Positions 7,066 through 22,907 of a stretch of 64,000 bases of DNA are shown here, in pieces. Both the position numbers and the translations under genes were made by a program. Source of the stretch: Acidobacteriota bacterium. GTDB taxonomy: Bacteria; Acidobacteriota; UBA4820. Position 1 is the stretch's first letter. Each line of letters opens with the position of its first letter. The notes beneath the pieces are model-generated. The model saw nothing but the letters and a program-made list of their open reading frames with translations, had not been told where the DNA came from and searched no databases. The stretch is from contig JAKQCT010000011.1 of the NCBI GenBank assembly GCA_029559035.1, positions 1,512 to 65,511 of the forward strand, in the 5' to 3' direction.

Positions 7066-7818
7066 ATGACCATGGGCTGCGGTTTGCTGTTCGACCAGAC
7101 CCTGTGCCTCGGATGCGGCGCGTGCGAGCTCGCCTGCCAGAAAGAACACGGCCAGCCACCTCACAAGGCGGTGAAGCTTGACGCGGATAGTTTCACTTTC
7201 GTCGGCAGGGTGGAGGGCGGCTATTTCCAGCGCCACCTCTGCATGCACTGCGGAGACCCCGCCTGCGCCTCCGTCTGCCCCGTGTCGGCGCTCCGGATAA
7301 CGAAAGAAGGGGCTGTCGTTTATGACGCCTCCATCTGCCTCGGCTGCAGGTACTGCGTCATGGCGTGTCCTTTTCTCATTCCAAAGTACGAGTGGAACTC
7401 GCCCTTCCCGCGAGTGCGGAAGTGCGACCTGTGCTACGAGGGCAGGGTATCAAAGGGCGAAGAGCCCGCCTGCGCCTCCGTTTGTCCGAACGGCGCAACC
7501 GTTTTCGGAGAGCGGGCGGAACTCCTGCGGATAGCGAAAGGCAGGATCCAGAGGGAGCCGGAGAAGTACATCGACGAGGTTTACGGGGAATATCAGGCCG
7601 GAGGGACATCGGTGATGATGATCCTCGGGAAGACGACAGCCGCATCAGGACTGCGGGAAGGGGTGCTCCTCGATGCTCTCCCTCCTCTGACGGGGAGGAT
7701 GCTGAGGAAGATCCCCGTCGCGGTGCCTGTCGTTGGATTGATGCTGGCGGGGTTCTATTTCCTCACCAAGAGAAAGAACGACATCGCGAAGGAAGAAGAG
7801 GAGGAGAAGAATGGCTAG
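7066..7818 (+). CDS. Four-cluster [4Fe-4S] ferredoxin-type subunit, NrfC/HybA/DmsB family, with C-terminal TM anchor
   Basis: 250 aa. Four Cys groups: CLGCGACELAC, CMHCGDPACASVCP, CLGCRYCVMACP, CDLC..CASVCP. C-terminal helix IPVAVPVVGLMLAGFYFLT. An in-frame stop 27 nt upstream excludes an N-terminal Tat signal. Confidence 0.9.
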   Translation: MTMGCGLLFDQTLCLGCGACELACQKEHGQPPHKAVKLDADSFTFVGRVEGGYFQRHLCMHCGDPACASVCPVSALRITKEGAVVYDASICLGCRYCVMACPFLIPKYEWNSPFPRVRKCDLCYEGRVSKGEEPACASVCPNGATVFGERAELLRIAKGRIQREPEKYIDEVYGEYQAGGTSVMMILGKTTAASGLREGVLLDALPPLTGRMLRKIPVAVPVVGLMLAGFYFLTKRKNDIAKEEEEEKNG

Positions 7819-8971
7819 AGGAAGAAAGCCTTTCCTGCTCGTCCTCGCCGCGATTCCGGCGCTCCCGGCTTACATTCTTTTCATGAGGTTCGTCCACGGC
7901 CTTGGCGCGGTGACCAACCTCACAGACGACATGCCGTGGGGATTATGGAAAGCGTTCAACGTCTTCTCCGGCGTCGCTCTGGCGTCGGGAGGGTTCACTA
8001 TAACCGCGGCCGTCGTGATATTTCATCTCGAGAAGTTCAGGCCCGTAGTCCGCCCCGCGGTCCTTACGGCCTTCATCGGCTACATGATGGTGATCCTCTC
8101 TCTGGTTGTCGATGTCGGCAGGCCGTGGAACCTCTGGCGCCCCCTCTTTTACTGGAACGAACGGTCGGTCCTCTGGGAGGTCGGGCTGTGCGTCATCTTC
8201 TATACGACGGTCCTTTTCCTCGAATTCCTTCCGCTTGTTTGGGAAAAGCTGGGGTTCCGGGGAGGCATCAGGTTCTGGGGTTGGCTGACCCCTGTCTTCG
8301 TGATCGCGGGCGTGACGCTTTCGTTCCTGCACCAGTCGTCGCTGGGCTCCGTTTACCTGATCGTCCCCGGAAAGCTGCATCCGCTCTGGTATTCTCCCGC
8401 TCTTCCGTTGTTCTTCTTCCTTTCCTCCGTCGCCCTGGGGCTCGCCGTCACATCCTGCGGCGCTCACTATTCCTCGAGGGCTTTCGGAAAGAGCTTCGAG
8501 CCTCTCATAACCGAGAGTCTTGGCAGGGCGACCGCCGTCGTCATGATCATCTATCTCGCTGCAAGGACTCTCGATCTCGGGATGAGGGGGAACCTCGACA
8601 AAGCCTTCCGGATGGACACCGCGTCTCTTTTCTTCCAGGCGGAAACTGCCTTGCTGGGGCTTCTTCCCGCAGCGCTTCTCCTTTTCCCCGCTTTCAGGCG
8701 GGATCCGGGTCGGGTCGCGGGGGCGCAGGCGACGGTGGTCCTCGGGATAGTTCTTAACAGGATGAACGTGACGCTAACCGCCTTTCAATTGGGAACCGGG
8801 GCTCGTTACATCCCCCATGTTTTCGAGGTCGCCGTATCGCTTATCATCCTTTGCGCGGGGTCTGCCCTTTTTTACCTGGCCGTGAAACACCTGCCCGTTT
8901 TCGGGGCCGGGGAGAGCATATCAAGCCCCCCTGCACATAAAGCCCCTGAAAAGGTTAGAATGGGAACATGA
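7811..8971 (+). CDS. NrfD/PsrC/HmcC-family polytopic quinone-interacting membrane subunit
   Basis: 386 aa, at least 8 hydrophobic helices. N-terminal WGLWKAFNVFSGVALASGGFTI is typical of the NrfD family. Overlaps the upstream gene by 8 nt. Confidence 0.8.
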   Translation: MARGRKPFLLVLAAIPALPAYILFMRFVHGLGAVTNLTDDMPWGLWKAFNVFSGVALASGGFTITAAVVIFHLEKFRPVVRPAVLTAFIGYMMVILSLVVDVGRPWNLWRPLFYWNERSVLWEVGLCVIFYTTVLFLEFLPLVWEKLGFRGGIRFWGWLTPVFVIAGVTLSFLHQSSLGSVYLIVPGKLHPLWYSPALPLFFFLSSVALGLAVTSCGAHYSSRAFGKSFEPLITESLGRATAVVMIIYLAARTLDLGMRGNLDKAFRMDTASLFFQAETALLGLLPAALLLFPAFRRDPGRVAGAQATVVLGIVLNRMNVTLTAFQLGTGARYIPHVFEVAVSLIILCAGSALFYLAVKHLPVFGAGESISSPPAHKAPEKVRMGT

Positions 8972-10536
8972 GAGACCGGCTAAACGAATCCGTCGCGATC
9001 AAACTGACCGTTATCATAACCGCGGGACTTCTCACGCTCGGCACCGTCGCGATATGGTACAGCTACCGCGTCCAGGAAAAGCAGTTTACCGGGCTTCTCG
9101 AGGCCGGAGGGGAAAAGCTCTCCGCGATGGCAGCGGAAGCGGTCGAACGGGGAATGCTGGATGGAGACAGGAAGTCCATCCGGGAAAAAGTGAAGTTGCT
9201 CGGCGCGCAGCGCGACGTGATACACATCCGGATAACCGGTCCGGATGGAGCGGCGGCTTTCTCGTCCGTTGAAGGGGACACGGGCGCGTCAGCGGGATCG
9301 TCCCCGGCGCCGGGCAGGGAAATATTGAGGATAGAAGCGTCGGGAAAGCTCCCCGCGTACAGGGTGCTGGACATGACGACTCCCATTTCAAGCAGTCCAG
9401 GATGCCTCAATTCTTCGTGCCACTTTCACAAGGCCGGCGGGCAGGCGCTTGGATTCGTCCGGGTTAGGCTCAGTCTCGATGCCTACGATCATATGCGCAG
9501 GCAGAGGTCCCTGAGGCTCATCATCGTGGGGCTGACCGGGATAATCCTGATAGCGCTCCTCGTTTTTTTCGCGGCCCACAAGCTTGTCCACGAGCCCGTG
9601 AGGGAGATCATCAGGGGAGTGAAAGAGGTTTCGATCGGCAACTACTCTTCGCGCGTCATGGAGATGAGCCGGGACGAACTCGGGACGCTGGCAAAGAATT
9701 TCAACAAGATGACGCAGGAGCTTCACAAGGCGAGGGCGGAGCTGATGGATTACGCCAACACCCTCGAATTCAGGGCGAGCCGGAAGGCCGAGGAACTCGA
9801 AAAAGCGCAGATGAGGATGCTCCAGGCGGAAAAAATGGTTTCCCTCGGGAAGCTTGCCGCCGTAGCCGCCGATGAATTGGAAGCGCCCGTCAGGGAAGTC
9901 GCTGAAAACGCGAAACGCCTGGCTGAGGAGATGAACCGCGGGGAAACGGGAGGCGGGGAGCTTGAAGAAAAGAGACGGAACCTGGAGTCGATAATATCCG
10001 GCGCGAAATCATGCATGAAAGCTCTCGAAGAACTTATCGCGTTCTCGAAAGAGGAGAGAGAGAGTCTCGAAAGATGCAGCCTTGCGGGGATCGCCGAAGA
10101 AGCGGCGGCGCTTCTCCGCCAGAGAGCGGGAGAAACAGTCCTCAGGGTAACAGTAGAAAAAAGCGCAGGCCCGATGTTTGTGAAAGCCGACAGGTCCCGC
10201 CTTCTCCAGGCCGTAGTGGCCCTCCTTGTGAACGCCTCGGAGGCCGCGAAAGGGCAGGACGGGGGGAATGTGGCGATCAGCTTCTCACGAGTTCCCGGTT
10301 TCGTGAGAATGGTGGTCGAAGACGACGGGCCGGGGATGGAACATGAAGTCGCGCAGAAGGTTTTCGAGCCGTTCTTTTCCACGAAGGAGACCCTTTCCTC
10401 GTTCGGGCTGGGGCTTTCGGTCGTGAGCGGCATAATCACCAAGCACAACGGTAAGATAGGCCTCGAGACGGCGCCGGGCAAGGGGGCGAAATTCACGATA
10501 GATCTTCCCGCCGCCGACGGGGAGGGCGCGAAGTGA
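8968..10536 (+). CDS. Membrane sensor histidine-kinase-like protein (2 TM, periplasmic loop, HAMP, DHp, HATPase) with degenerate H-box
   Basis: 522 aa. TM1 residues ~12-33, TM2 ~183-204. HAMP region (ELGTLAKNFNKMTQEL). N, G1, F and G2 boxes are intact (LLVNASEA, DDGPGM, FEPFFSTK, GLGLSV). The H-box reads LAAVAADELEAPV, with GAT (Asp) at 9871-9873 where His is expected. CLNSSCH at 9403-9423 lies in the periplasmic loop. Confidence 0.85.
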   Translation: MRDRLNESVAIKLTVIITAGLLTLGTVAIWYSYRVQEKQFTGLLEAGGEKLSAMAAEAVERGMLDGDRKSIREKVKLLGAQRDVIHIRITGPDGAAAFSSVEGDTGASAGSSPAPGREILRIEASGKLPAYRVLDMTTPISSSPGCLNSSCHFHKAGGQALGFVRVRLSLDAYDHMRRQRSLRLIIVGLTGIILIALLVFFAAHKLVHEPVREIIRGVKEVSIGNYSSRVMEMSRDELGTLAKNFNKMTQELHKARAELMDYANTLEFRASRKAEELEKAQMRMLQAEKMVSLGKLAAVAADELEAPVREVAENAKRLAEEMNRGETGGGELEEKRRNLESIISGAKSCMKALEELIAFSKEERESLERCSLAGIAEEAAALLRQRAGETVLRVTVEKSAGPMFVKADRSRLLQAVVALLVNASEAAKGQDGGNVAISFSRVPGFVRMVVEDDGPGMEHEVAQKVFEPFFSTKETLSSFGLGLSVVSGIITKHNGKIGLETAPGKGAKFTIDLPAADGEGAK

Positions 10537-10901
10537 GAAAGATGGCCTTGCCCGCGATCATAGTGGCTTTTTGTCTGATTCTCTTGGCGCAGGCTCGGGG
10601 ACCCTCAGCCCCCGCGAGCCCGATAAAAATAGACAAGCTGTCCTACTGGTTCGACGGCGTCTCTTTCAGCCATCCGAAACATTCCGCAGCGGCATGCGGG
10701 AAATGCCACCACATGGGTTTCGAAGGAGGTTCCGGTTGCTCGTCATGCCACCCGAAGGAGAAGACATCGCCGTCCGAGGTCTCCCTCAAGGACGCCTATC
10801 ACGGCGTTTGCCTTCCGTGTCACACCGCGAAAGGCAAGGATGTAAAAGAAGGCTGCGAGAACTGCCACAAGGCCCGAAAACTGGCTGTGCCGAAAAAATA
10901 A
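10533..10901 (+). CDS. Periplasmic tetrahaem cytochrome c3-type protein
   Basis: 122 aa. Signal peptide MRKMALPAIIVAFCLILLAQA. Four CXXCH motifs (CGKCH, CSSCH, CLPCH, CENCH). Eight His in total, as needed for four bis-His haems. Confidence 0.85.
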   Translation: MRKMALPAIIVAFCLILLAQARGPSAPASPIKIDKLSYWFDGVSFSHPKHSAAACGKCHHMGFEGGSGCSSCHPKEKTSPSEVSLKDAYHGVCLPCHTAKGKDVKEGCENCHKARKLAVPKK

Positions 10902-10997
10902 GTGATCGCGATTTCACCGAAGAAAGCTATGAAAGAACAAATGCTGTTATCTTTTCTTATAGGGCGGGTTTCGAACCCGTCCCTACGGTACCCAACA

Positions 10998-11128
10998 TTC
11001 CCTATCGACATCGACCCTTCAGCCGTCAGCCTTCAGACTTCAGCTCTAGCGACAGCCGTACGGCTGCGCATTAATTGAAAATTGAAAATTGATGGAATCA
11101 ATATCCTTATCGAACTTCAGGCTTCAGC
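10998..11128. repeat. Intergenic composite repeat: IS-end-like element (copy A) with CTTCAG iterations and a 14-nt palindrome
   Basis: 11076-11128 (TGAAAATTGAAAATTGATGGAATCAATATCCTTATCGAACTTCAGGCTTCAGC) aligns at roughly 80% by eye with 59999-60067, next to the IS3 transposase relic. A partial second copy (TTCCCTATCGA..CTTCAGCCGT) sits at 10998-11026. Perfect palindrome CAGCCGTACGGCTG at 11053-11066. Five CTTCAG motifs within about 115 nt. Confidence 0.45.
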
Positions 11129-11187
11129 ATTAAGCCTTCTGCGCCGGCGTCAGCCAAGTAAACGTGTTTCATTTGTTTAACACAAGC

Positions 11188-11216
11188 TTGATTTTTCGAC
11201 GACAAAGCCATATATT
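11188..11216 (+). promoter_or_regulatory. Sigma70-type promoter of the Kelch gene pair
   Basis: TTGATT (11188-11193), 17 nt, TATATT (11211-11216). GGGGG RBS 6 nt before ATG 11239. Confidence 0.5.
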
Positions 11217-11238
11217 GAAATCTTAACGGGGGTTCAAA

Positions 11239-14200
11239 ATGAAAAGAGGCATGGTCTTTCTGTCCGCTCTTTTATTGGGAGCGATCGGCATTAATGTTTC
11301 TTCGCGCGAACCGCTAACTTTTCATGAGCGTGTGAAGGCGCAGGAGGCGATAGAGCGGGTCTATTACAACCACCGCATCTGGCCGAAAGAGAATCCTCAA
11401 CCCAAACCTCCCTTTGAAAAGATGGTCCCGAAGGAAGTGATCGAAGCGAAAGTGACCGATTATCTTAAGAAGTGCTCTGCCCTCGACCAATTCTGGCAGA
11501 GGCCAATAATCGCGAGCCAGCTCCAAGCCGAAATGGACCGCATGGCAAAAGGAACAAAAGCCCCGCAGATCTTAAACGAATTGTTCGCCGCGCTGAATAA
11601 CGACCCGTATTTGATAGCAGAGTGCCTTGCCCGTCCCGTCCTCGCCGACAGGCTGATCCATAACTGGTATGCGAATGATACCCGATTCCATCAAGAAGCG
11701 AGGGAGAAAGCCGAAGAAGCCTTGAAATTGCTGACACCGGAAAACTTCGCGTTCCTGGATATCGGAGAATACTCAACTGTCACTTATAAATTGGAGAAGG
11801 AAAGCGAAGAAACTTTTGCGGAGAATCCCGAAGAGCAAAGTAATGTTATCCGACTTCCGCAGGATGAATGGGAAGAAACGCTGTCAAAGTATCCCCAGCA
11901 GGGAGGAATTTCCTCAGTAATTGAATCTGACCTGGCATTCACCATAACGCACGCTGTCCGGCTGTGTACTGATGAAATGGTTGTCGAGATAAGAAGCTTT
12001 CCAAAGAAGAGCTTCAGCAAATGGTGGGGAGAAGAGGTTGTCGCTCTTGAACAGAGTAATAGTTTGCCGGAAACAGGATCATACTCCTTTATGCTCCCTC
12101 ATCCCGAAGCTGCGTGCGAATCAGAGTGGAGACATTCGAGCCTGAACGCAATTCTTGAAAAAAGATACTGTCACACCGCCATTTGGACCGGCACTGAGAT
12201 GATCATCTGGGGGGGGGTGGTGATGGAACAAGTAAATGACGGCGCAAGATACAATCCCTCTATCGATACATGGACGGCTGTTTCAAGAGGGACAAATTGC
12301 CCCTCGCCGAGAAGTTTTCAAACAGCTATTTGGACCGGAACCGAGATGATAATTTGGGGTGGATACTATTATCTTGGAGGATACACCTATTTGAACACGG
12401 GAGGAAAGTATAATCCTTCAACTGATAGCTGGACGATCACTTCTGCGGGAACAAATTGCCCGTCATCCAGAGCCGGTCACGTAGCTGTCTGGTCAGGTTC
12501 CGAAATGATAATCTGGGGGGGCGAAGGTGGCAGCACGAGCTTCAATACGGGTGGACGCTATAACCCATCGACGGATAATTGGATTCCGACATCTACTACA
12601 ATCAATTGTCCTGGAGCAGCTAGAGGCTATTCGGCCATATGGACAGGAACTGAGATGATTATTTGGGGGGGGTATAGAGCAAGCTATACGAATGAAGGCA
12701 ACCGTTACAACCCAACGACAGATAGTTGGACCCTTACTTCCACGGGTACTAATTGTCCCTCAGAACGTACTGAACACACAGCAGTATGGACCGGAACTGA
12801 AATGATAATCTGGGGTGGTAAATATGCCGGCAGCTACTTAAACACAGGTGGATGCTATAACCCCACAACAGATACATGGACCGCCACTTCAACGGCAACT
12901 GATTGTCCCACCGCCCGCAATATTCACACTGCGGTATGGACAAACAATGAAATGATCATTTGGGGTGGCTACGCTGGAGTTAGGGGGTTAAATTCAGGGA
13001 GTCGATACAATCCCGTTACAAACACGTGGATACCAACCTCCACTGATACTAATTGTCCCTATGGTCGAATAAATCATACTGTTCTTTGGACAGGGAGCGA
13101 GATGATTGTATGGGGTGGTCGTGGATCCTATTCCCTTGATGGATATGATAGTGGGGGAAAGTATGATCCGCTGACCGACAGCTGGGTTCCCACCGCAGTG
13201 CCTGCAGGATCCGAACCGACCTACCGTGGAGGAACTGCTATTTGGACAGGATTAGAAATGATCATTTGGGGAGCGACGGGTGGTCGATATAATCCCTCAA
13301 CAGACAGCTGGACGGCGACATCCACAGGGACGAATTGCCCTTCCGCGCGTTATGGCCACACTGCAATCTGGACGGGAACGGAAATGATAGTATGGGGCGG
13401 ATATGATACATACTATCTTAAGACAGGTGGAAGATACAATCCTGTTTCTGATAGCTGGACAAGCACATCTACTGGAGTAAATTGTCCGACGGTTCGAGAT
13501 TATCATAGCGCTGTCTGGACCGGTACGAAAATGATTATTTGGGGTGGAATAAGCGGAAATTACACGAACACGGGGGGGCAGTATGATTCCCAAGCAGATA
13601 GCTGGACGGCAACCTCGACAGATACTATTTGCCCTTCAGCAAGGCGTTCACATTCCGTTATTTGGACAGGTTCCGAAATGATAGTTTGGGGTGGATACTT
13701 TTATCTTGGAGGATACAAATATTTGAACACGGGAGGAAAGTATAATCCTTCTACAGATATCTGGACCGCCACTTCCACAGGAACGGACTGCCCATCAGCT
13801 CGAAGCTGCAAATCAGTCTGGATAAACGGTGAAATGATCATCTGGGGAGGGTATTCAGGAAGTAACTACCTAAACACTGGAGGCCGTTACAATCCCGTAA
13901 CCGACAATTGGATCCCGACGTCCACCGGAGCATACTGCCCTACTGGACGCGACAATCACACAGCAATCTGGACAGGCTCTGAGATGATTGTTTGGGCAGG
14001 CAATAACTATGATGTTTGTCTCAATACTGGAGGAAGGTACTTACATTCGACCGACACCTGGATCACAACATCAACGGGCACGAACTGCCCGGCGGGACGC
14101 CAGGGCCATGTCGCCGTCTGGACAGGGACAGAGATGATAATCTGGGGAGGAGGTCTTTCCGGCGGAGGAATATACTCGCCTCCGCCTGCTATAACCGGGA

Positions 14201-15210
14201 CCGCTGCTGGTTGTTACGGCGCAAGCGCTGTTACTCTTTCAACAGGAAGCAATCCGGGATACCAATGGTTAAAAGATGGATCCCCTATCGACGGCGCGAC
14301 CGGTCAGAACTGCATTGTCACAGAGGACGGCGATTATTCCGTCAGGATCACAAGACGGGACGGATGCACGGTCGATTCGAGCCCATACACTGTATCTTTC
14401 CTGTCTGCGCCGATGCCGACGGTGACGGGCAATTTCACGGGGTGCGTTGGCGTGGGGGCCGCGCTTTCAACTCAATTATATTCCTCTTACCAATGGATTA
14501 AGGACGGCCTTGATATTTCCGGCGCGACGAACCAGGACTACACTGCGACGGAAGCCGGTTCATACTCGGTGCGCGTGGCGGGAAGCAACGGTTGCAGCAG
14601 AACATCTCCCGCACAGATAGTGACCATCCTGCCCGGCCCCACGCCGGTGATCACAGGCCCCGACAGCGGGTGCGGAAGCGTCAATTTGAGCACGGACCCT
14701 TATTCGACATATCAATGGAAACTTAACGGGATAGACATTTCTAACGCCACATCACAGAGCTATGACGCCAACGTGTCGGGAGACTATTCGGTTGAAGTAA
14801 TTACCTCCGAGGGATGCCAGGGTACATCATCTGAAAAAACGGTTTCCATCACTTTCTGCTCCACTTCCGAAGTCAGCCCGAAAGCAGCCGTCTATCCTTC
14901 CAGGTTCTCAAAAGACTCCGGCTCATCGACGGGCTATTATCTCTACTTCCAGAAGATCGACGGAGTGACAGGCTACAATATTTATGAGGGAACTATGGGC
15001 AGCTGGTACAGCCATTCCGGCCAGCCCGGCAATGTCTGCGCGGCGACCGTCACGGACCTCGGGACCGGCGAGATGAGGGCCGAGATAGCCCCGAGCGCGG
15101 GGGATCACTATTATCTAGTGACGGCGTACGCCGGAAGCTACGAAGGGCCGAGCGGGTATAATTCGGGCAACGTCGAGATCGACCCGCTTCTCAGTTCGTG
15201 CAGTCCGTAA
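11239..15210 (+). CDS. Secreted giant multidomain protein K1: unknown N-domain, 14 Kelch-type blades, 3 Ig-like repeats, unknown C-terminal FN3-like domain
   Basis: 1323 aa. Signal peptide MKRGMVFLSALLLGAIGINVSS. 14 repeats of the type R..HTAVWTGTEMIIWGG..NTGGRYNP.TDSW (GG doublet, Y and W of Kelch). 3 repeats C..LST..YQW.KDG..I.GAT.Q.Y..G.YSV.V..GC. The last ~115 aa are shared with K2. Confidence 0.9.
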   Translation: MKRGMVFLSALLLGAIGINVSSREPLTFHERVKAQEAIERVYYNHRIWPKENPQPKPPFEKMVPKEVIEAKVTDYLKKCSALDQFWQRPIIASQLQAEMDRMAKGTKAPQILNELFAALNNDPYLIAECLARPVLADRLIHNWYANDTRFHQEAREKAEEALKLLTPENFAFLDIGEYSTVTYKLEKESEETFAENPEEQSNVIRLPQDEWEETLSKYPQQGGISSVIESDLAFTITHAVRLCTDEMVVEIRSFPKKSFSKWWGEEVVALEQSNSLPETGSYSFMLPHPEAACESEWRHSSLNAILEKRYCHTAIWTGTEMIIWGGVVMEQVNDGARYNPSIDTWTAVSRGTNCPSPRSFQTAIWTGTEMIIWGGYYYLGGYTYLNTGGKYNPSTDSWTITSAGTNCPSSRAGHVAVWSGSEMIIWGGEGGSTSFNTGGRYNPSTDNWIPTSTTINCPGAARGYSAIWTGTEMIIWGGYRASYTNEGNRYNPTTDSWTLTSTGTNCPSERTEHTAVWTGTEMIIWGGKYAGSYLNTGGCYNPTTDTWTATSTATDCPTARNIHTAVWTNNEMIIWGGYAGVRGLNSGSRYNPVTNTWIPTSTDTNCPYGRINHTVLWTGSEMIVWGGRGSYSLDGYDSGGKYDPLTDSWVPTAVPAGSEPTYRGGTAIWTGLEMIIWGATGGRYNPSTDSWTATSTGTNCPSARYGHTAIWTGTEMIVWGGYDTYYLKTGGRYNPVSDSWTSTSTGVNCPTVRDYHSAVWTGTKMIIWGGISGNYTNTGGQYDSQADSWTATSTDTICPSARRSHSVIWTGSEMIVWGGYFYLGGYKYLNTGGKYNPSTDIWTATSTGTDCPSARSCKSVWINGEMIIWGGYSGSNYLNTGGRYNPVTDNWIPTSTGAYCPTGRDNHTAIWTGSEMIVWAGNNYDVCLNTGGRYLHSTDTWITTSTGTNCPAGRQGHVAVWTGTEMIIWGGGLSGGGIYSPPPAITGTAAGCYGASAVTLSTGSNPGYQWLKDGSPIDGATGQNCIVTEDGDYSVRITRRDGCTVDSSPYTVSFLSAPMPTVTGNFTGCVGVGAALSTQLYSSYQWIKDGLDISGATNQDYTATEAGSYSVRVAGSNGCSRTSPAQIVTILPGPTPVITGPDSGCGSVNLSTDPYSTYQWKLNGIDISNATSQSYDANVSGDYSVEVITSEGCQGTSSEKTVSITFCSTSEVSPKAAVYPSRFSKDSGSSTGYYLYFQKIDGVTGYNIYEGTMGSWYSHSGQPGNVCAATVTDLGTGEMRAEIAPSAGDHYYLVTAYAGSYEGPSGYNSGNVEIDPLLSSCSP

Positions 15211-15223
15211 TAAGGGGGTTAAG

Positions 15224-18200
15224 ATGAAGCGCATTCTGATCGTTGTTCTTGTCCTGTCGGTTTCATTTACGGTAATGGCCCGATCTCCCCTAACCTTCGA
15301 GGAGAGGGTTAAGGCTCAGGAGGCTATAGAGCGGGTCTATTACAGCCACCGCATCTGGCCGAAGGAGAATCCCCAGCCCAAACCTTCCTTCGAGAAGATG
15401 GTTCCCAAAGAGTCCATCGAAGCGAAGGTGACCGATTACCTGAAAAAATGCGCCGCTCTCGACCAGTTCTGGCAGAGGCCGATCATCGCATCCCAGCTCC
15501 AGGCCGAGATGGATCGCATGGCAAAAGGAACAAAAGACCCGCAGATCTTAAACGAATTGTTCGCCGCGCTGAATAACGACCCGTATTTGATAGCAGAGTG
15601 CCTGGCCCGCCCCGTGCTGGCCGACAGGCTTATCCATAACTGGTACGCGAACGACGAGAGGTTCCACGCCGACGGCAGGGCGAAAGCCGAAGAGGCTGCG
15701 AAGGTGCTGACACCAGAGAACTTCTGTTCGTATCCTGAAGGCCAATACAACAAAATGTCCTATAGGCTGGAAATCGAGGAACGGGAAGAACTTGGAGAAG
15801 CGACTCCCCATGGCAATTCCATCAAGCTCGATGAAAAAGAGTTCGCGAAGATGCAGGCGGACATACCCGAAGAGGGGAAGATTTCTGAAATCCAGGAGAA
15901 AAACGATTTTTTCGTTATAACCCATACGATCTCAAAGAATGAAGTAGAGATCGAGGTTGAAAGCCTCTCTTTCCAGAAAACTAGCTTTGACGAGTGGTGG
16001 AAAGAAACTAACACCGCGTTTGAACAGTCTGATTCAGCAGATCAGACTGCAGAAGACATTTATTCGTTACCACCAACAACTGAAGCTGCATGCACAGAAG
16101 GGTGGGTGCGTTCAGGCCTGAATTCGTTTTTAGATAATCGTACCTTACACTCGGCTGTATGGACCGGCAGCGAAATGATCGTTTGGGGTGGAGAAGTAAC
16201 TAATGGGGCTCAAAGAAATGACGGCGCGAGATATAACCCGTCTACAGACACATGGACCATGACATCCACCGGGACAAACTGTCCAACGGCAAGAGCCGGG
16301 CATTCGGCCGTATGGACAGGAAATGAAATGATTATTTGGGGCGGTTACACCTCGAACGGCCCCACTACTTATTACAGAACTGGAGGAAGGTACAACCCCA
16401 ATACGGATTCTTGGACGGCTACTAGGTCTGACGGTACGTCCGCGGCTATTCGAGCTTTTCACACAGCCGTTTGGACAGGAACAGAGATGATAGTATGGGG
16501 AGGATACTATTGGGTATCAGGTTCTGGAGGAGGACAAATAAACACGGGAGGACGTTACACGCCAAGCGGTAACACATGGGTTCTCACATCTACGGGAACG
16601 AACTGCCCAACTATACGTCAAGGCCACTCTGCTGTCTGGAGCGGCTCTGAAATGATCATTTGGGGCGGACATAATGTTAATGGTTTTTTAAATACAGGAA
16701 GCCGGTACACGCCTTCTTCAAATTCATGGCAGGCTGTTTCCACAGGAACAAATTGCCCAACCAAACGCGAAAATCACACTTCTATTTGGACAGGGTCAAT
16801 GATGATCGTATGGGGCGGAAGCAGCACCTATTACGATCAAGCGCCATTAAGTACTGGAGCACAATATGACCCCTTGACAGATACTTGGAGCACTGTGTCC
16901 TCAGAAACGAATTGCCCATCTGCCCGCTCCAGCCACACGGCAGTCTGGACCGGAAGCATGATGATTATTTGGGGGGGGCGGACTTATGTTAACGCCTCAC
17001 CTTTCCCTTTTTACAGTTATTTCAACACCGGGGGGCTTTATGACCCACTAACGGATTCGTGGACAGCAACTTCTTCCGACATTAATTGCCCTTCCGCAAG
17101 ATCGGGACATCGCGCTGTCTGGACTGATTCTGAAATGATAATATGGGGAGGTAACGATAAGAATACGGGGGCGCGTTATAATCCTGGAACCGACACCTGG
17201 GTGCCAACATCTATGGGATATGATTCATCAATTGGGGCAGCCGAAAAAGCCGTTTGGACAGGCAACGAAATGATCGTCTGGGGGGGAGATTCCGGTATCG
17301 GAGGAGGAAGATACAATCTAGTGACAGACTCATGGAGTACTACATCCACGGGAGCAAATGTCCCTTCGCCGCGGAGAAGTTTTTCGACAGTTTGGACGGG
17401 AACAGAGATGATCGTGTGGGGTGGAATCACAGGAAGCTCAACTTGGACAAATACAGGCGGGAGGTATAATGCTATTAAAGATTCGTGGAAATCTACTTCA
17501 ACTGGCATAAATGTTCCTTCCGCGCGATATGAACATTGCAGTGTTTGGACTGGGACAGAGATGATAGTATGGGCGGGAGCCGGTAATGTCGGGAATACCG
17601 GTGGACGATACAACCCTATTGATGATACTTGGACAGCCACTTCAACGGGCGAGAATTGCCCGTCCGCTCGAAGATCCTGGCCTAGTGCTGTATGGACAGG
17701 TTCTGAAATGATTGTATGGGGGGGATCACCAGCCACAAACACCGGCGGAAGATACAATCCTTCAAGCGACAGCTGGATTGCCACTTCCACAGAAGCCAAC
17801 TGTCCATCCATAAGGTTTGGGCATACGGCCGTTTGGACAGGAACGGAAATGATAATTTGGGCCGGATCTACTAACAGCCCGACTACCGCATATTTTAACG
17901 ATGGAGGACGATATAACCCATCAACAGATTCATGGACACCAACTTCATCAACCTCGCTTGGCGTACGTGCTTATCATACAGCAGTCTGGACAGGTACTGA
18001 AATGGTCGTATGGGGTGGAACCTATTATGAAAGTCCCAACTCCTATCGTCTCAACACAGGTGGCAAATACAATCCAACTACAGAGACATGGGTTCCCACA
18101 TCTACCGGCACAGATTGCCCGACGCCGCGATATGGGCACACGGCAGTATGGGCAGGCGATGAAATGATAATATGGGGTGTGACGGGAAGTGGTGGAATAT

Positions 18201-19558
18201 ACTACATCCCATCTTCTCCAATAATTTCGGCCAACAATATTGCAATTGATGCATCATCCTGTAAAGATACAGGAATTTCTATAGAATGGAGCAATCCATC
18301 ATGGGGTGATGGAGGAAGCGGAACGAGGACATTCGACGTACTCAGGGACGGCGGCACGATTGCTACGGGCTTGTCATCGTCAACTCTTTCTTATGTAGAT
18401 ACGACAGGCGACAATGGCGTCTCTTATCTGTACCAGGTCCGAGCCAATAATGGTTGCGGCTCATCAACGACAACCGCGGGAACTTCTGCGGCCGATGTCA
18501 TTGATGTTTATCCCACTCCCTCAATCTCAGGCAACACTGCGGGCTGTTCCATTTCCGGCGTAACAATCAGCACCGGCTCATTCTCGACATATCAATGGAA
18601 TTACGAAGGAGAGGCAATTGTCGGAGCGACAAGCCAGAGCTATCAGGCTTTCGACAGCGGGAATTACTCGGTAACAGTAAGCAACGAAGGGGACTGCTCA
18701 GGCACGTCGAGTACACATAATGTCACCGTCTATTCAACTCCTCCTGTGGTCTCCGGTGATTCTTCCGCCTGCACGGGCTCCATCATCACTCTTTCAACAG
18801 GGGCTTATCCTTCCTACCAGTGGTACAAGGATGGGGTCCTTATAGACGGCGCGACCAGGCAGACACTTGACGTATCTCTGCCGGGCACATACTCGGTGTT
18901 CGTGGATGTTCCGGAAGGAGTCTGTTCCGGGACATCAGGAGGCCATGTTGTTCAGTTCGCAGATCCGCCGGCGAATCCTCCTGTCATATCCGGAGGTTCG
19001 TCCAACACCTGCCCCGCCACTTTCCTGACATTGCAGACGACGGAAGCTTTCGGCAGTTATCAGTGGTATCACAACGGCAACCTTATCCCAGGAGCGACCG
19101 GGCAAACTTTCTCAGCGACATTGTCTGGAAACTATTCGATTTCGGCCGGAGCAGTTTCTGGATGTCAGCTGTCTTCAGCGACACATTCTGTTTCTATAAG
19201 TTTCTGTCCACCCTCAGAAGTGAGCCCGAAAATGGCCGTCTATCCTGCCGCGATGAAAAAGGATACGGGTTCATCTACGGGCTATTATCTCTACTTCCAG
19301 AAGATCGACGGAGTGACAGGCTACAATATTTATGAGGGAACTCTGGGCAGTTGGTACAGTCATTCCGGGCAGCCGGGCAATGTCTGCGCGGCGACCGTCA
19401 CGGACCTCGGGACCGGCGAGACGAGGGCGGAGATAAGCCCGAGCGAAGGGAATCATTATTACCTTGTGACGGCGTATTCCGGCTCGGTTGAAGGGCCGAG
19501 CGGATTCAATTCGGTAAATGCCGAGATTGACCCGCTACTCAGTTCGTGCAGTCCGTAG
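15224..19558 (+). CDS. Secreted giant multidomain protein K2 (paralogue of K1): N-domain, 14 Kelch blades, FN3-like module, 4 Ig-like repeats, shared C-domain
   Basis: 1444 aa. Signal peptide MKRILIVVLVLSVSFTVMA. 14 WGG-type Kelch repeats. FN3-like ISIEWSNP..YLYQVRANNGCG. 4 YQW/GAT.Q Ig-like repeats. Lies 13 nt after the K1 stop with a GGGGG RBS in the spacer. Confidence 0.9.
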   Translation: MKRILIVVLVLSVSFTVMARSPLTFEERVKAQEAIERVYYSHRIWPKENPQPKPSFEKMVPKESIEAKVTDYLKKCAALDQFWQRPIIASQLQAEMDRMAKGTKDPQILNELFAALNNDPYLIAECLARPVLADRLIHNWYANDERFHADGRAKAEEAAKVLTPENFCSYPEGQYNKMSYRLEIEEREELGEATPHGNSIKLDEKEFAKMQADIPEEGKISEIQEKNDFFVITHTISKNEVEIEVESLSFQKTSFDEWWKETNTAFEQSDSADQTAEDIYSLPPTTEAACTEGWVRSGLNSFLDNRTLHSAVWTGSEMIVWGGEVTNGAQRNDGARYNPSTDTWTMTSTGTNCPTARAGHSAVWTGNEMIIWGGYTSNGPTTYYRTGGRYNPNTDSWTATRSDGTSAAIRAFHTAVWTGTEMIVWGGYYWVSGSGGGQINTGGRYTPSGNTWVLTSTGTNCPTIRQGHSAVWSGSEMIIWGGHNVNGFLNTGSRYTPSSNSWQAVSTGTNCPTKRENHTSIWTGSMMIVWGGSSTYYDQAPLSTGAQYDPLTDTWSTVSSETNCPSARSSHTAVWTGSMMIIWGGRTYVNASPFPFYSYFNTGGLYDPLTDSWTATSSDINCPSARSGHRAVWTDSEMIIWGGNDKNTGARYNPGTDTWVPTSMGYDSSIGAAEKAVWTGNEMIVWGGDSGIGGGRYNLVTDSWSTTSTGANVPSPRRSFSTVWTGTEMIVWGGITGSSTWTNTGGRYNAIKDSWKSTSTGINVPSARYEHCSVWTGTEMIVWAGAGNVGNTGGRYNPIDDTWTATSTGENCPSARRSWPSAVWTGSEMIVWGGSPATNTGGRYNPSSDSWIATSTEANCPSIRFGHTAVWTGTEMIIWAGSTNSPTTAYFNDGGRYNPSTDSWTPTSSTSLGVRAYHTAVWTGTEMVVWGGTYYESPNSYRLNTGGKYNPTTETWVPTSTGTDCPTPRYGHTAVWAGDEMIIWGVTGSGGIYYIPSSPIISANNIAIDASSCKDTGISIEWSNPSWGDGGSGTRTFDVLRDGGTIATGLSSSTLSYVDTTGDNGVSYLYQVRANNGCGSSTTTAGTSAADVIDVYPTPSISGNTAGCSISGVTISTGSFSTYQWNYEGEAIVGATSQSYQAFDSGNYSVTVSNEGDCSGTSSTHNVTVYSTPPVVSGDSSACTGSIITLSTGAYPSYQWYKDGVLIDGATRQTLDVSLPGTYSVFVDVPEGVCSGTSGGHVVQFADPPANPPVISGGSSNTCPATFLTLQTTEAFGSYQWYHNGNLIPGATGQTFSATLSGNYSISAGAVSGCQLSSATHSVSISFCPPSEVSPKMAVYPAAMKKDTGSSTGYYLYFQKIDGVTGYNIYEGTLGSWYSHSGQPGNVCAATVTDLGTGETRAEISPSEGNHYYLVTAYSGSVEGPSGFNSVNAEIDPLLSSCSP

Positions 19559-19584
19559 CTATTCCGGGAACGCTTTCTTAAATG

Positions 19585-19621
19585 AAGCCGGGCGCCCTCC
19601 AAAGGCGCCCGGCTTGTTTTT
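19585..19621. terminator. Strong hairpin terminator between convergent genes
   Basis: AAGCCGGGCGCC (19585-19596), CTCCAAA loop, GGCGCCCGGCTT (19604-19615), then GTTTTT. Confidence 0.8.
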
Positions 19622-19640: not shown

Positions 19641-20474
19641 TCATGCCTTCATTTTTTTCCTTATCTTGTAAATTCCCCCGACCACAAGCGCGAAGAGAAG
19701 GAAGAGGGCGGCGAGGGGCCACAGGTAAACCAGGGCGATGCAGAAGTTGACGAAGAAGTTCCAGCCTCCGGAGAAGGCATTTTGTAGCTTCTCGCCGTAG
19801 TGGCTCCTGGCCGTTACGGGCTGGCGGTAGGTTATGGTCAGGGTGCTGAAGGCGACGCTCTTGGAAAGGTAGCGGAGCCTGCCTTCGGACCGCTCGATCT
19901 CTTCCCTGACGCTTGCGATCTGGGCTTCGACGGCGAGGATGTCGCTGATGCTCGCGGTTTTGGCGAGGAGCTGCCTGAAGGTCGCCTCCAGCTCCTTCTT
20001 GTTCCTGATCCTCACCTCGAGGTCCATGTATTCCTCGGTGACGTCCAATGCGTCGATCTTCTTCGAATCGAACTCCCCCGCGTGCTGTTCCAGGAGTGAG
20101 AGGAACCTGTCGAAGTTCTCGGCGGGGATCCTGACCGTGCAGACGGCTTCTATGGAAGAGGCGCCGGCTGTCTGCGTCTCCGTGCCGTAGTACGAGCCGG
20201 TCTCCCGGACTATCTGGTCGATCCTGGTCTTGGTCTCGGAAAGGCTTTTAGTCTTAAAGGATATCGAGCCTTCCCTGATCAGCTTCCGGTCTATCGCGGC
20301 GGCAGACGGGGATGGTCTGTCGGCTCTTGACGACGATTCGTCCGCCTCCGCCGGAGAGGATTTCCTCGCCATCTCGGGAGCGGCGGCCCCGGAGACCATC
20401 TGCTTTGAAGGTTTGGAACAGGACATCGCCGCAAGCATCGCGGCTGCAAGAAGGATAAAGAGCCTGATCTTCAT
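19641..20474 (-). CDS. DUF4349-like lipoprotein with coiled coil and C-terminal TM segments
   Basis: 277 aa. Lipobox LAAMSC. Central DVTEEYMDLEVRIRNKKELE..LAVEAQIASVREEIERSEGRL. C-terminal hydrophobic WNFFVNFCIALVYLWPLAALFLLFALVVGGIY. Confidence 0.65.
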   Translation of the reverse strand: MKIRLFILLAAAMLAAMSCSKPSKQMVSGAAAPEMARKSSPAEADESSSRADRPSPSAAAIDRKLIREGSISFKTKSLSETKTRIDQIVRETGSYYGTETQTAGASSIEAVCTVRIPAENFDRFLSLLEQHAGEFDSKKIDALDVTEEYMDLEVRIRNKKELEATFRQLLAKTASISDILAVEAQIASVREEIERSEGRLRYLSKSVAFSTLTITYRQPVTARSHYGEKLQNAFSGGWNFFVNFCIALVYLWPLAALFLLFALVVGGIYKIRKKMKA

Positions 20475-21173: not shown

Positions 21174-22907
21174 ATGGGTGAAGACGTTAAAAAGATCGGT
21201 AGGTACGAGATCCTCGACAAGCTCGGGCAGGGCGCGATGGGCATCGTCTACAAGGCGATGGACCCCAACATCGGAAGGATAGTCGCTTTGAAGACCATCT
21301 CGCAATCGGCGACCCTTCCCGAAGCGCAGAAAAAGGAGTACGCCGCCCGTTTCTTCAGGGAAGCCAAAGCGGCGGGTTCCCTCCAGCATCCCAACATCGT
21401 GACCATCTACGACATGGACGAGGACCAGGGTATCCCCTATATCGCGATGGAATACGTCGAGGGCAAGAGCCTTTCGAAGATGATCGAGGAGCAGGGAAGG
21501 ATCCCCTGGAACGACGCTGTCGCGATAATCAAAGCCACGGCCGAAGGGCTGATGTACGCCCACGAGAAGGGGATCGTCCACAGGGACATCAAGCCCGACA
21601 ATATCCTGATAGACAGGAACGGAAGGCCGGTCGTCACCGACTTCGGCATCGCGCACCTGCAGGAGAGCAGCCTCACGAGGACAGGCGAGGTCCTCGGGAC
21701 CCCCTTCTTCATGAGCCCGGAGCAGATCCTCGAAGGGAAGCTGGACGCGAGGAGCGACCTTTTCTCCCTCGGCGTCGTTTTCTACCTTATGCTGACGGGA
21801 CACAGGCCCTTCAGGGGGGAAACGATATCCAGCATCTGCTACCACATAGTACACACTCCTCCGGAACAGCTTCCCACGGACGATTCGATTCCTTCGCACC
21901 TCATGCCGATCCTGAACAAGATGCTGGAAAAGGACCCGGACAGGAGGTACGCGGGAGAAAAACCGCTCATCGCCGACCTTGAAAAAGCCCTCGGCGGACA
22001 CACCGTGATGCAGGCGGAAGTCGAGACCATCAACAGGCCCGTACAGCCGGAAACGCCCAGGCCCCAGCCGGAGAAACAGGCGGCTCAGCCGCCGGCGGCG
22101 CCTAAGGCTAAACCCGCGTCCAAAACTCCCGCGCCTCCGCCCGCCCCATCTGTTCCCGCCGCGCCGAAGAAAAAATCCTCCGCGATGCCCCTCGTCATCA
22201 TCGGTGGCATCGCGTTCGTTGTATTCCTCGCGGCGGTCCTGGGCGGGGGATACTACATGTACAGCAAGGGGTTTTTCGGGGGAAAGGGCGGGGAGAATAT
22301 AGAAGAACCGCCTGCAGTGAGCGAACCGGACACGGGAGGAGACCTGCCCGAAACGCCGCAAGTGGAGCAGAGGATTCCCCCTGACGATTACCAGGAGCCG
22401 AAGCAGGACACTCCCAGGAGCGGCACGCAGCCATCGGGTGAAACGACCCAGCCTCCGCCGGTGAAAAGGCCGGTGAAGCAGCAGGAAGAGCGTCCCGCCG
22501 TCCAGCCGAAAGAGCCGGATACGCCTCCTCCGCCGACCGCGGAAGAGACCAAACCCGTCCAAACCAAGCCGGCCAAGATCGGCCTGGTCTTTGAAACGAG
22601 GATCTCGGAGATCTCCCTCACTTTTTACCTGGATGGTGAAGAGAAACTGCGAGAGGTTTACACGGCGGAGAGCGGGACGCGGTTCACTCAGGAATTCAGA
22701 GTGCCGCCCGGACAGCATTCGATCAGGGTGGTGGTCCAGGCTACCAAGTTCCCTCCGTTCATCAGGGAGGGTTCGTTCAACATCGACCTGTCGGAAGGCG
22801 GGCATCAGGTGATCAAGATAGAGCCGTCCAGGAAGCCCGCGCCCAGGCTGACAATCAAGAAGATCGACGTCATAACGGGGGCGAGCACGACGATAATGGA
22901 AAAATAG
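21174..22907 (+). CDS. Transmembrane Hanks-type Ser/Thr protein kinase
   Basis: 577 aa. GQGAMGIVYKA..VALK, HRDIKPDNIL, DFGIA, GTPFFMSPEQ. Pro-rich linker. One TM (LVIIGGIAFVVFLAAVLGGGYYMY). About 200 aa of extracytoplasmic tail. Confidence 0.9.
   Translation: MGEDVKKIGRYEILDKLGQGAMGIVYKAMDPNIGRIVALKTISQSATLPEAQKKEYAARFFREAKAAGSLQHPNIVTIYDMDEDQGIPYIAMEYVEGKSLSKMIEEQGRIPWNDAVAIIKATAEGLMYAHEKGIVHRDIKPDNILIDRNGRPVVTDFGIAHLQESSLTRTGEVLGTPFFMSPEQILEGKLDARSDLFSLGVVFYLMLTGHRPFRGETISSICYHIVHTPPEQLPTDDSIPSHLMPILNKMLEKDPDRRYAGEKPLIADLEKALGGHTVMQAEVETINRPVQPETPRPQPEKQAAQPPAAPKAKPASKTPAPPPAPSVPAAPKKKSSAMPLVIIGGIAFVVFLAAVLGGGYYMYSKGFFGGKGGENIEEPPAVSEPDTGGDLPETPQVEQRIPPDDYQEPKQDTPRSGTQPSGETTQPPPVKRPVKQQEERPAVQPKEPDTPPPPTAEETKPVQTKPAKIGLVFETRISEISLTFYLDGEEKLREVYTAESGTRFTQEFRVPPGQHSIRVVVQATKFPPFIREGSFNIDLSEGGHQVIKIEPSRKPAPRLTIKKIDVITGASTTIMEK

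Follow-up and report, generated by a model that had tools for sequence, protein, structure and literature searches.

What two adjacent genes for very large exported proteins do in an Acidobacteriota bacterium is the question raised by the locus described here. The genes, which we call K1 and K2, lie in a 64,000-nt stretch of contig JAKQCT010000011.1 (GenBank assembly GCA_029559035.1, positions 1,512 to 65,511); the window is this whole stretch, and all coordinates are positions in it. With trust and doubt about evenly balanced, we read K1 and K2 as tandem duplicates that belong to a large family of exported proteins, which would bind ligands at the cell envelope or surface and have no enzymatic function. 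No catalytic domain was found in either protein with Pfam, NCBIfam or PADLOC; a previous sequence-only reading of this DNA had seen no enzyme next to the pair. The sequence motifs named in that reading are also real, far beyond chance.

Architecture of K1 and K2

Both proteins are built of the same modules in the same order, and the two coding sequences are separated by 13 nt, as had been described:

11239..15210, + strand: K1 coding sequence, 1323 amino acids (aa) (open reading frame, Kelch matches, motif scan)
11239..11304, + strand: K1 Sec signal peptide MKRGMVFLSALLLGAIGINVSS, aa 1-22, followed by REP (sequence and hydrophobicity)
11305..11733, + strand: K1 N1 domain, predicted six- or seven-helix bundle, aa 23-165 (model, alignment; motifs WPKE-P-PKP, QLQAEMDRM and IAECLARP invariant)
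11734..12123, + strand: K1 N2 domain, predicted beta-beta-alpha-beta-beta-alpha fold with an acidic loop, aa 166-295 (model, alignment)
12124..13209, + strand: K1 predicted Kelch propeller 1, blades 1-7, aa 296-657 (Pfam, motif scan, model)
13210..14193, + strand: K1 predicted Kelch propeller 2, blades 8-14, aa 658-985 (Pfam, motif scan, model)
14188..14862, + strand: K1 three Cys-pair immunoglobulin (Ig)-like repeats, aa 984-1208 (repeat reading; weak PKD_3 and Ig_2 matches)
14854..15207, + strand: K1 C-terminal domain, aa 1206-1323, ending in SSCSP (phmmer, alignment)
15224..19558, + strand: K2 coding sequence, 1444 aa (open reading frame, Kelch matches, motif scan)
15224..15280, + strand: K2 Sec signal peptide MKRILIVVLVLSVSFTVMA, aa 1-19, followed by RSP (sequence and hydrophobicity)
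15281..16099, + strand: K2 N1 (aa 20-162) and N2 (aa 163-292) domains (alignment)
16100..17227, + strand: K2 predicted Kelch propeller 1, blades 1-7, aa 293-668 (Pfam, motif scan)
17228..18238, + strand: K2 predicted Kelch propeller 2, blades 8-14, aa 669-1005 (Pfam, motif scan)
18251..18508, + strand: K2 putative fibronectin type III (FN3)-like module, aa about 1010-1095 (read from the sequence; a weak match to an RGI_lyase beta-sheet model only, no profile confirmation)
18521..19213, + strand: K2 three Cys-pair Ig-like repeats, aa 1100-1330 (Ig_2, E 2e-7; Ig_7, E 2e-5)
19202..19555, + strand: K2 C-terminal domain, aa 1327-1444, ending in SSCSP (own profiles, alignment)

The Sec signal peptides recognised in the sequence-only reading have the canonical features in both products, that is Lys or Arg residues, a stretch of 14-16 hydrophobic residues and small residues at -3 and -1, with predicted cuts between VSS and R in K1 and between VMA and R in K2. 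No lipobox could be read in either signal peptide.

The N-terminal region that follows had been called unassignable, and separate searches led to the same result: it gave no Pfam match at E ≤ 10 and no NCBIfam match at E ≤ 0.01, nothing significant against the PDB by sequence or profile, and nothing at E ≤ 1e-3 in Foldseek searches of the PDB and of BFVD (viral structures). A structural model of the region has a mean predicted local distance difference test score (pLDDT) of 91.4 and a predicted template modelling score (pTM) of 0.80, and only an acidic loop of 15-25 residues is uncertain in it. The segment at about aa 165-295, which had been taken for a variable acidic linker, is instead a conserved alpha/beta domain, N2, modelled at pLDDT above 90, in which that loop lies. 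N1 is the most conserved part of the family, with W26, P27, K34, P35, E76, R79, E106, R110 and D125 invariant and C107 and H129 nearly so (K1 numbering from aa 23), and the invariant residues that define the family are present in both K1 and K2. Its position is also fixed: N1 always begins only a few residues past the signal peptide or membrane anchor. Conservation and position together suggest that the end close to the membrane has a precise interaction or activity, which the family has kept.

The motif W-x-G-x-E-M-I-x-W-G-G occurs exactly 14 times in K1 and 14 times in K2, and PF24681 matches the two proteins with E-values of 3e-116 and 5e-119, next to matches with Kelch_1, Kelch_2, Kelch_3 and Kelch_6, so that the count of 14 Kelch repeats per protein proved right. 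By sequence, the propellers are ordinary members of the Kelch superfamily. An AlphaFold2 (AF2) model of K1 aa 23-1000, made with 77 relatives, has a mean pLDDT of 90.9 and a pTM of 0.69. The sole dip of confidence inside the modelled blade region is at model residues 631-640 (K1 aa 653-662), which is the junction of blades 7 and 8. A D-type strand is found ahead of blade 1 and none past blade 14, and two sets of 28 strands fit the model; this strand list is consistent with two rings of the same make-up (one velcro strand at the N-terminal side, seven A-B-C triplets, six D strands). From the confidence values and the strand inventory, the 14 blades probably form two closed seven-bladed propellers. 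Relatives in which no more than six or seven blades were counted behind N1-N2 (loci L004, L027, L033 and L036, among others) provide independent support for a two-by-seven arrangement. The two tandem propellers suggested in the sequence-only reading are thus favoured by the model and by these relatives; of the observation behind that suggestion, namely that blades 7 and 8 are joined by the sole junction without Cys, the part on K1 stands and the part on K2 does not, since Cys is missing there from blades 2, 8, 9 and 12 as well.

Fourteen blades in one chain that fold as two seven-bladed propellers have a precedent in WRAP of Nostoc (Npun_R6612), and a seven-bladed, Kelch-like repetitive propeller has been described from a Verrucomicrobia bacterium (Pereira and Lupas, 2022, PMC9218822). 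WRAP, however, is of the WD40 type, is made of near-identical, recently amplified blades and is carried on a STAND ATPase (PMC9218822), whereas K1 and K2 have blades with about 50% identity and no repeats at the DNA level. Within the arrays, blade-to-blade identity is about 50-54%, blades of K1 and K2 that share an index are hardly more similar than blades that do not, and no DNA-level tandem repeat was found in the blade arrays. These features indicate that the array is old, and a recent amplification of blades was ruled out. Unlike WRAP, the 14-blade array of the K1/K2 type is conserved across phyla.

In Foldseek searches, the model matched the Kelch propellers of Keap1 and of KLHL12, KLHL17 and KLHL20 (E about 1e-18, target-normalised TM-score about 0.75), which have the same blade fold and motif as K1, and a tandem-Kelch axonemal protein (E 1e-25). 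Kelch substrate receptors bind their ligands on the face made by the B-C and D-A loops. The B-C loops, which belong to the ligand face in Keap1 and KLHL proteins, are the variable part of the K1/K2 family: they are 4-12 aa long and enriched in Tyr (2.3-fold) and Phe (4.4-fold), and the blade framework around them is near consensus. The Keap1 and KLHL receptors differ in being single, six-bladed, cytosolic and BTB-linked, whereas K1 and K2 have two predicted seven-bladed propellers, are Sec-exported and carry other flanking domains.

A separate observation concerns the residue ahead of Pro in the N-x-P motif of the D-A loop. Nearly all blades of one protein agree at this place, but one protein may differ from another: K1, K2 and their nearer relatives have Cys there, whereas most other proteins have Ala or Val. 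Such uniformity would come either from blades that evolve in concert or from selection, across a lineage, on a buried site.

Between the propellers and the C-terminal domain, the sequence-only reading had counted three Ig-like repeats in K1 and four plus an FN3 module in K2. The three repeats of K1 and the FN3-like module of K2 were retained, and K2 was found to have three Ig-like repeats rather than four.

Distribution of the family and of its C-terminal domain

The architecture is not peculiar to the pair; besides the genome loci given below, thousands of metagenome proteins have it. Genomes were surveyed with one genome per species (GTDB), and at least 502 family loci were found, in Acidobacteriota, Verrucomicrobiota, Brocadia, Fischerbacteria and Eisenbacteria; the N-terminal region alone matches 1694 proteins. 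Detailed analysis was carried out on the best 78 loci, whose architecture was read with our own hidden Markov models for N1, N2 and Kelch. All 78 have N1, then N2, then Kelch blades. Acidobacteriota are represented among them by Holophagales, Aminicenantes, Terriglobia, Thermoanaerobaculia, Blastocatellia and Polarisedimenticolia, and Verrucomicrobiota by Chthoniobacterales and Udaeobacter; the others come from Brocadia, Fischerbacteria and Eisenbacteria. The dominant form is N1-N2-14 blades, of about 1050-1450 aa, and a minority form has seven blades. The alignments of full-length relatives span 97-100% of K1 aa 23-1000, with identities of 40-60%, and these relatives are labelled in databases as 'hypothetical', as 'Kelch repeat-containing' or, by JGI, as 'N-acetylneuraminic acid mutarotase'. 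Their C-terminal extensions vary and are of the adhesion or beta-sandwich type (P-domain, TIG, fn3, Ig, PKD, Big_13); the Pfam accessions precomputed for full-length relatives presumably also include dockerin and TSP_3.

Several copies per genome are frequent, often in tandem, with at least six in Holophagales UBA2201. About 10 of the 78 loci contain a tandem pair. The nearest relative of one partner is usually the other, which indicates that such pairs are local duplications. An ancient A/B heterodimer pair was rejected on the same ground. The candidates for operon partners (a Kelch paralogue, an S8 subtilase, DegP, a DEAD helicase and an ABC-F protein) were also set aside, the recurrent clusters having the look of lineage synteny.

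Three features of single loci were recorded along the way. Two loci, L018 (7830-13634) and L019 (13028-18736), contain members of about 3000 aa with three proprotein-convertase P-domains after the 14 blades, and with TIG in L018. Giant S8 subtilases lie close to family genes in seven loci. In seven long-read metagenome-assembled genomes (MAGs) of Verrucomicrobiota and others (L038, L039, L047, L060, L063, L071 and L075), family genes are split into short reading frames in different frames, and these may be either pseudogenes or the product of homopolymer sequencing errors in repeat-rich genes.

The C-terminal domain has a distribution of its own. It is present in both K1 and K2, as had been noted, is 118 aa long and has no assignment: the isolated domain gave no Pfam match at E ≤ 10, whole K1 and K2 gave no NCBIfam match at E ≤ 0.01, and a PDB profile search returned nothing at E ≤ 10. 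Rather than a trait of these two proteins, it turned out to be a promiscuous C-terminal module of unrelated carriers. Searched for exhaustively with phmmer, it matched 196 cluster representatives at E ≤ 1e-3, 99 of them at E ≤ 1e-10. Where the domain is near-complete (122 representatives), it ends within five residues of the C-terminus in 117, and 93 of these 117 end in C-x-P; Y46, G48, H56, C64 and C118 are invariant. The co-occurrence of the N- and C-terminal domains, which the sequence-only reading had proposed to survey, is low: N1 is present in only 7 of 46 long carriers of the C-terminal domain. The other carriers include Sortilin/Vps10-type and Rax2-type proteins, proteins with Laminin_G_3, FG-GAP or MAM domains, a metallo-beta-lactamase with LTD, and other Kelch proteins.

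A domain that is always last and is shared by diverse carriers is typical of sorting or anchoring tags, such as the C-terminal domains (CTDs) of the type IX secretion system (T9SS). By this analogy, the domain of K1 and K2 would most likely keep the protein at the envelope or surface or sort it there, as its position and promiscuity suggest. Like Por_Secre_tail and CHU_C, it is a module of about 100 aa, globular, last in the protein, found on diverse secreted carriers and often placed after Ig-like repeats, and the K2 repeats weakly match Ig_7, a model described as 'CHU_C associated'. The differences are that its hosts are Acidobacteriota-like and not Bacteroidota, and that the invariant Cys pair and the terminal C-x-P are its own. 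No match with the T9SS CTD profiles (TIGR04183, TIGR04131, Por_Secre_tail, CHU_C) was found in K1, K2 or the isolated domain. Position and diversity of carriers would support a domain that works like a T9SS CTD, not one that belongs to that group. Exosortase and sortase signals (PEP-CTERM, LPXTG) were also looked for, and K1 and K2 have no such motif with a C-terminal helix and basic tail, nor an NCBIfam match. The domain contains no transmembrane or hydrophobic segment, and both proteins end in EIDPLLSSCSP.

Composition and surroundings of the locus

The GC content at third codon positions (GC3) is 0.52 in K1 and 0.50 in K2, as compared to 0.67-0.86 in 15 other genes of the window, which agrees with the A/T-rich third positions pointed out in the sequence-only reading. 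In a comparison of 46 family loci, the offset of 0.22 below the neighbours is the most negative. That low GC3 is shared by the family in general was rejected, since the offsets in the 46 loci have a median of -0.02 and a range from -0.22 to +0.22. In a Candidatus Brocadia MAG (L056, 5480-8350), the family gene is foreign in the opposite direction, with a GC3 of 0.57 against 0.37 in its neighbours. Taken across loci, the offsets show that family genes are often compositionally foreign, which fits repeated horizontal transfer.

The deviation is uneven inside K1 and K2: the propellers have a GC3 of 0.41-0.46, whereas that of N1 and the C-terminal domain is 0.61-0.73. The N1 and C-terminal segments of K1 (11359-11718 and 14854-15207) are 82-91% identical at the DNA level to those of K2 (15335-15700 and 19202-19555), and at identical residues the same codon is used in a fraction of 0.6-0.85 in these segments, as compared to 0.15-0.5 elsewhere in the two genes. 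Gene conversion between K1 and K2 at both ends would be the simplest explanation of this sequence pattern. A metagenome protein of 324 aa (P0001), in which a K1-like signal peptide and N1 are joined to a K2-like N2 (FCSYPEGQY..., KNEVEIE...), appears from its sequence to be a K1/K2 recombinant of a related strain, and its mosaic structure is a further pointer to recombination. Of the horizontal acquisition proposed in the sequence-only reading, the atypical GC3 remains in favour; the uneven GC3 and the homogenised ends indicate that acquisition in one simple step does not explain everything.

The features around the two coding sequences are the following:

10962..10983, in the 337-nt gap 5' of K1: imperfect palindrome GGGCGGGTTTCGAACCCGTCCC, present once in the window (sequence)
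10999..11139, in the 337-nt gap upstream of K1: short CTTCAG-type direct repeats, not like an insertion sequence (IS) (sequence)
11188..11216, + strand: promoter-like site TTGATT-17-TATATT (9/12 consensus match; weak evidence)
11228..11232, + strand: K1 ribosome-binding site GGGGG (sequence)
15214..15219, + strand: K2 ribosome-binding site AGGGGG, within the 13-nt gap (sequence)
19585..19621, + strand: intrinsic terminator with a 12-bp stem (10 G-C pairs), a 7-nt loop and a T-run (sequence)
19641..20474, - strand: DUF4349 gene, convergent, ending 82 nt past K2 and beyond the terminator (Pfam, E 2e-52)

The ribosome-binding sites are G-rich and lie 7-11 nt 5' of each ATG. The single strong terminator that had been placed after the pair was found again and is the strongest terminator-like site of the region. 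The promoter had been called near-consensus, a description that we do not share: it matches at 9 of 12 positions only, and it is weak evidence because 19 sites that score at least 9/12 occur in the same 10 kb, as compared to 9.9 ± 3.0 in shuffled sequences.

The IS-end relic that had been placed just upstream was not found. The hairpin at 10962-10983 occurs once in the window, and there are no terminal inverted repeats, only short CTTCAG repeats being present besides. No mobility gene, integrase, tRNA, Rfam match, IS-like end or flanking repeats were found in the window, and its core genes, namely those for the aspartyl-, histidyl- and arginyl-tRNA synthetases (AspRS, HisRS, ArgRS), Suf and SppA, place the pair in the core chromosome. 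The identical K1 protein is encoded on 10 contigs from at least three metagenomes, each time in the same gene context, and the locus is thus a stable feature of an uncultured organism; JGI 3300025856, ERZ27257442 and ERZ773361 are samples with this exact locus. A synteny query aimed at an insertion, made with the upstream histidine kinase, found a single 2.2-kb metagenome contig.

The genes near the pair encode a histidine kinase, a cytochrome c3, the DUF4349 protein, a chalcone-isomerase-like protein and a Ser/Thr kinase. DUF4349 was not seen adjoining family genes in the other surveyed loci. Upstream, at 7066-10901, a co-directional cluster whose neighbouring reading frames overlap by a few bases encodes a 4Fe-4S dicluster protein, an NrfD-like membrane protein, a HAMP histidine kinase and a class III (c3-type) multihaem cytochrome, and this redox module with its sensor kinase suggests an anaerobic host. 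The region is rich in signalling genes, with Ser/Thr protein kinases of 577 and 977 aa at 21174-22907 and 48696-51629, two sigma-54 response regulators and a PIN-PhoH protein.

Possible roles of K1 and K2

In the role that we propose, each protein would be exported by the Sec pathway, and N1 and N2 would fold directly behind the signal peptide or membrane anchor and dock a conserved partner near the membrane. The two modelled seven-bladed propellers would come next, and their top faces, with 14 variable, aromatic-rich B-C loops, may serve as two binding platforms per protein, by analogy with Kelch receptors. The three Ig-like modules, with the FN3-like module in K2, would act as a stalk, and the 118-aa domain ending in C-x-P would retain or sort the protein at the cell envelope or surface. 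With near-identical N1 and C-terminal domains and divergent propellers and stalks, K1 and K2 may share their docking ends and bind different ligands.

Two of the alternatives also assign a non-catalytic function to the proteins. They could be scaffolds or chaperones tethered to the inner membrane in the periplasm, with N1-N2 as a docking or chaperone module of PpiD/SurA-like logic and with propellers that hold envelope proteins or polymers. The start of N1 so close behind the signal peptide or anchor would suit this location, as would several relatives (P0067, P0109) with a long cytoplasmic N-tail, a transmembrane segment and no obvious cleavage site. The chaperone side of the proposal came from a weak PDB profile match (E 0.16), from the top, non-significant Foldseek match of the N-terminal model, the periplasmic peptidyl-prolyl isomerase 8hm3_B (E 0.017, Foldseek probability 0.30), and from one of 82 members that touches SurA_N at E 0.016 in the Pfam scan. 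The isomerase match, however, disappeared with a profile of the N-terminal region only, its TM-score is 0.19, and Foldseek gave no match at E ≤ 1e-3, so a SurA/PpiD-like chaperone was rejected for N1-N2. Considering also that the signal peptides of K1 and K2 are canonical and cleavable, that relatives bear modules of the extracellular type (PKD, TIG, fn3, P-domain) and that proteins of up to 3000 aa fit the periplasm poorly, we regard the periplasmic scaffold as unlikely. Slightly more doubtful in our view are secreted structural or matrix proteins of a biofilm or S-layer-like type, whose paralogues would build an extracellular lattice with no specific ligand. The many copies per genome, the large size, the repetitive beta-rich modules and the Ig/FN3-like stalks speak for them, but variable loops on one face of an otherwise invariant scaffold, together with a conserved N1, look like recognition.

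An enzyme of the Kelch type, either a sialic-acid mutarotase (NanM) or a copper radical oxidase similar to galactose or glyoxal oxidase, is suggested by the mutarotase name that JGI gives automatically to many full-length relatives and by the Pfam description of Kelch_3 and Kelch_4 as 'Galactose oxidase, central domain'. NanM (YjhT) is also a periplasmic bacterial Kelch propeller. It has one propeller, of six blades, in about 390 aa, and its gene belongs to a sialic-acid operon. K1 and K2 differ from it in their 14 blades and five other modules, in their length and in a gene context with no sugar-metabolism genes nearby, and neither of them gave a match with the NANM model PF24996 at E ≤ 0.01. 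Pfam showed no Glyoxal_oxid_N or E-set domain of the galactose oxidase type either, the conserved blade residues are those of a generic Kelch framework, and most relatives uniformly have Ala or Val in place of the per-blade Cys, which speaks against its use in a cofactor; a Kelch enzyme is therefore very improbable. We give the least credit of all to effectors of contact-dependent competition, polymorphic toxins or a predation factor. Giant secreted proteins with variable regions, tandem paralogues and atypical composition might evoke such systems, but the C-terminal domain, instead of being polymorphic, is conserved and common to unrelated carriers, no toxin domain, downstream immunity-like small reading frame, adjoining secretion-system gene or PADLOC match was found, and the gene downstream is the convergent DUF4349.

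Several points weigh against our preferred reading of K1 and K2 as exported binding proteins. N1 is about 60% identical across phyla, with invariant charged residues, a Cys and a His, and by its sequence this would suit a catalytic site or a precise docking site. The sorting or anchoring function of the C-terminal domain is drawn from its position and promiscuity, and no known sorting-domain model matches it. Ring closure and domain packing are likewise deduced from the confidence values and strand inventory of a model. Many relatives seemingly keep an uncleaved N-terminal anchor, which would place them in the periplasm rather than at the surface. All-against-all clustering of the neighbours in the 78 loci gave no conserved neighbour gene, the top cluster being present in 8 of 78. 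Finally, no member of the family has been characterised, and a literature search found no paper that describes it.

Large exported bacterial binding proteins made of beta-propellers and Ig-like modules are known in kind. What has not been described, as far as the libraries searched can tell, is N1-N2, its fixed link with a double seven-bladed Kelch array and the C-terminal domain ending in C-x-P. A wider proposal, which we put forward tentatively and consider more doubtful than not, joins two claims. N1-N2 would be a new pair of domains, related to nothing in Pfam, NCBIfam, the PDB or BFVD, and would define a multi-copy receptor family that spans phyla in soil and sediment Acidobacteriota and Verrucomicrobiota, with 14 diversifying, aromatic-rich loops on a fixed double Kelch propeller, a repertoire comparable in its logic to other variable-loop receptor families; at the same time, the C-x-P domain would tag an unrecognised secretion or surface-anchoring pathway of Acidobacteriota-like bacteria.

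Acidobacteriota and Verrucomicrobiota such as Udaeobacter dominate many soils, and their interactions with the environment are poorly known. In these bacteria, the family accounts for thousands of large exported proteins, often several per genome, which are annotated as 'hypothetical' or, wrongly, as 'sialic acid mutarotase', and the definition of N1-N2 as a domain family would fix this widespread misannotation. The C-terminal domain, once defined as a module tied to the end of proteins, would offer concrete access to what may be a new sorting route, its tag being present in about 200 protein clusters. The double seven-bladed propeller with its variable loops is, in turn, a candidate module for the recognition of the environment.

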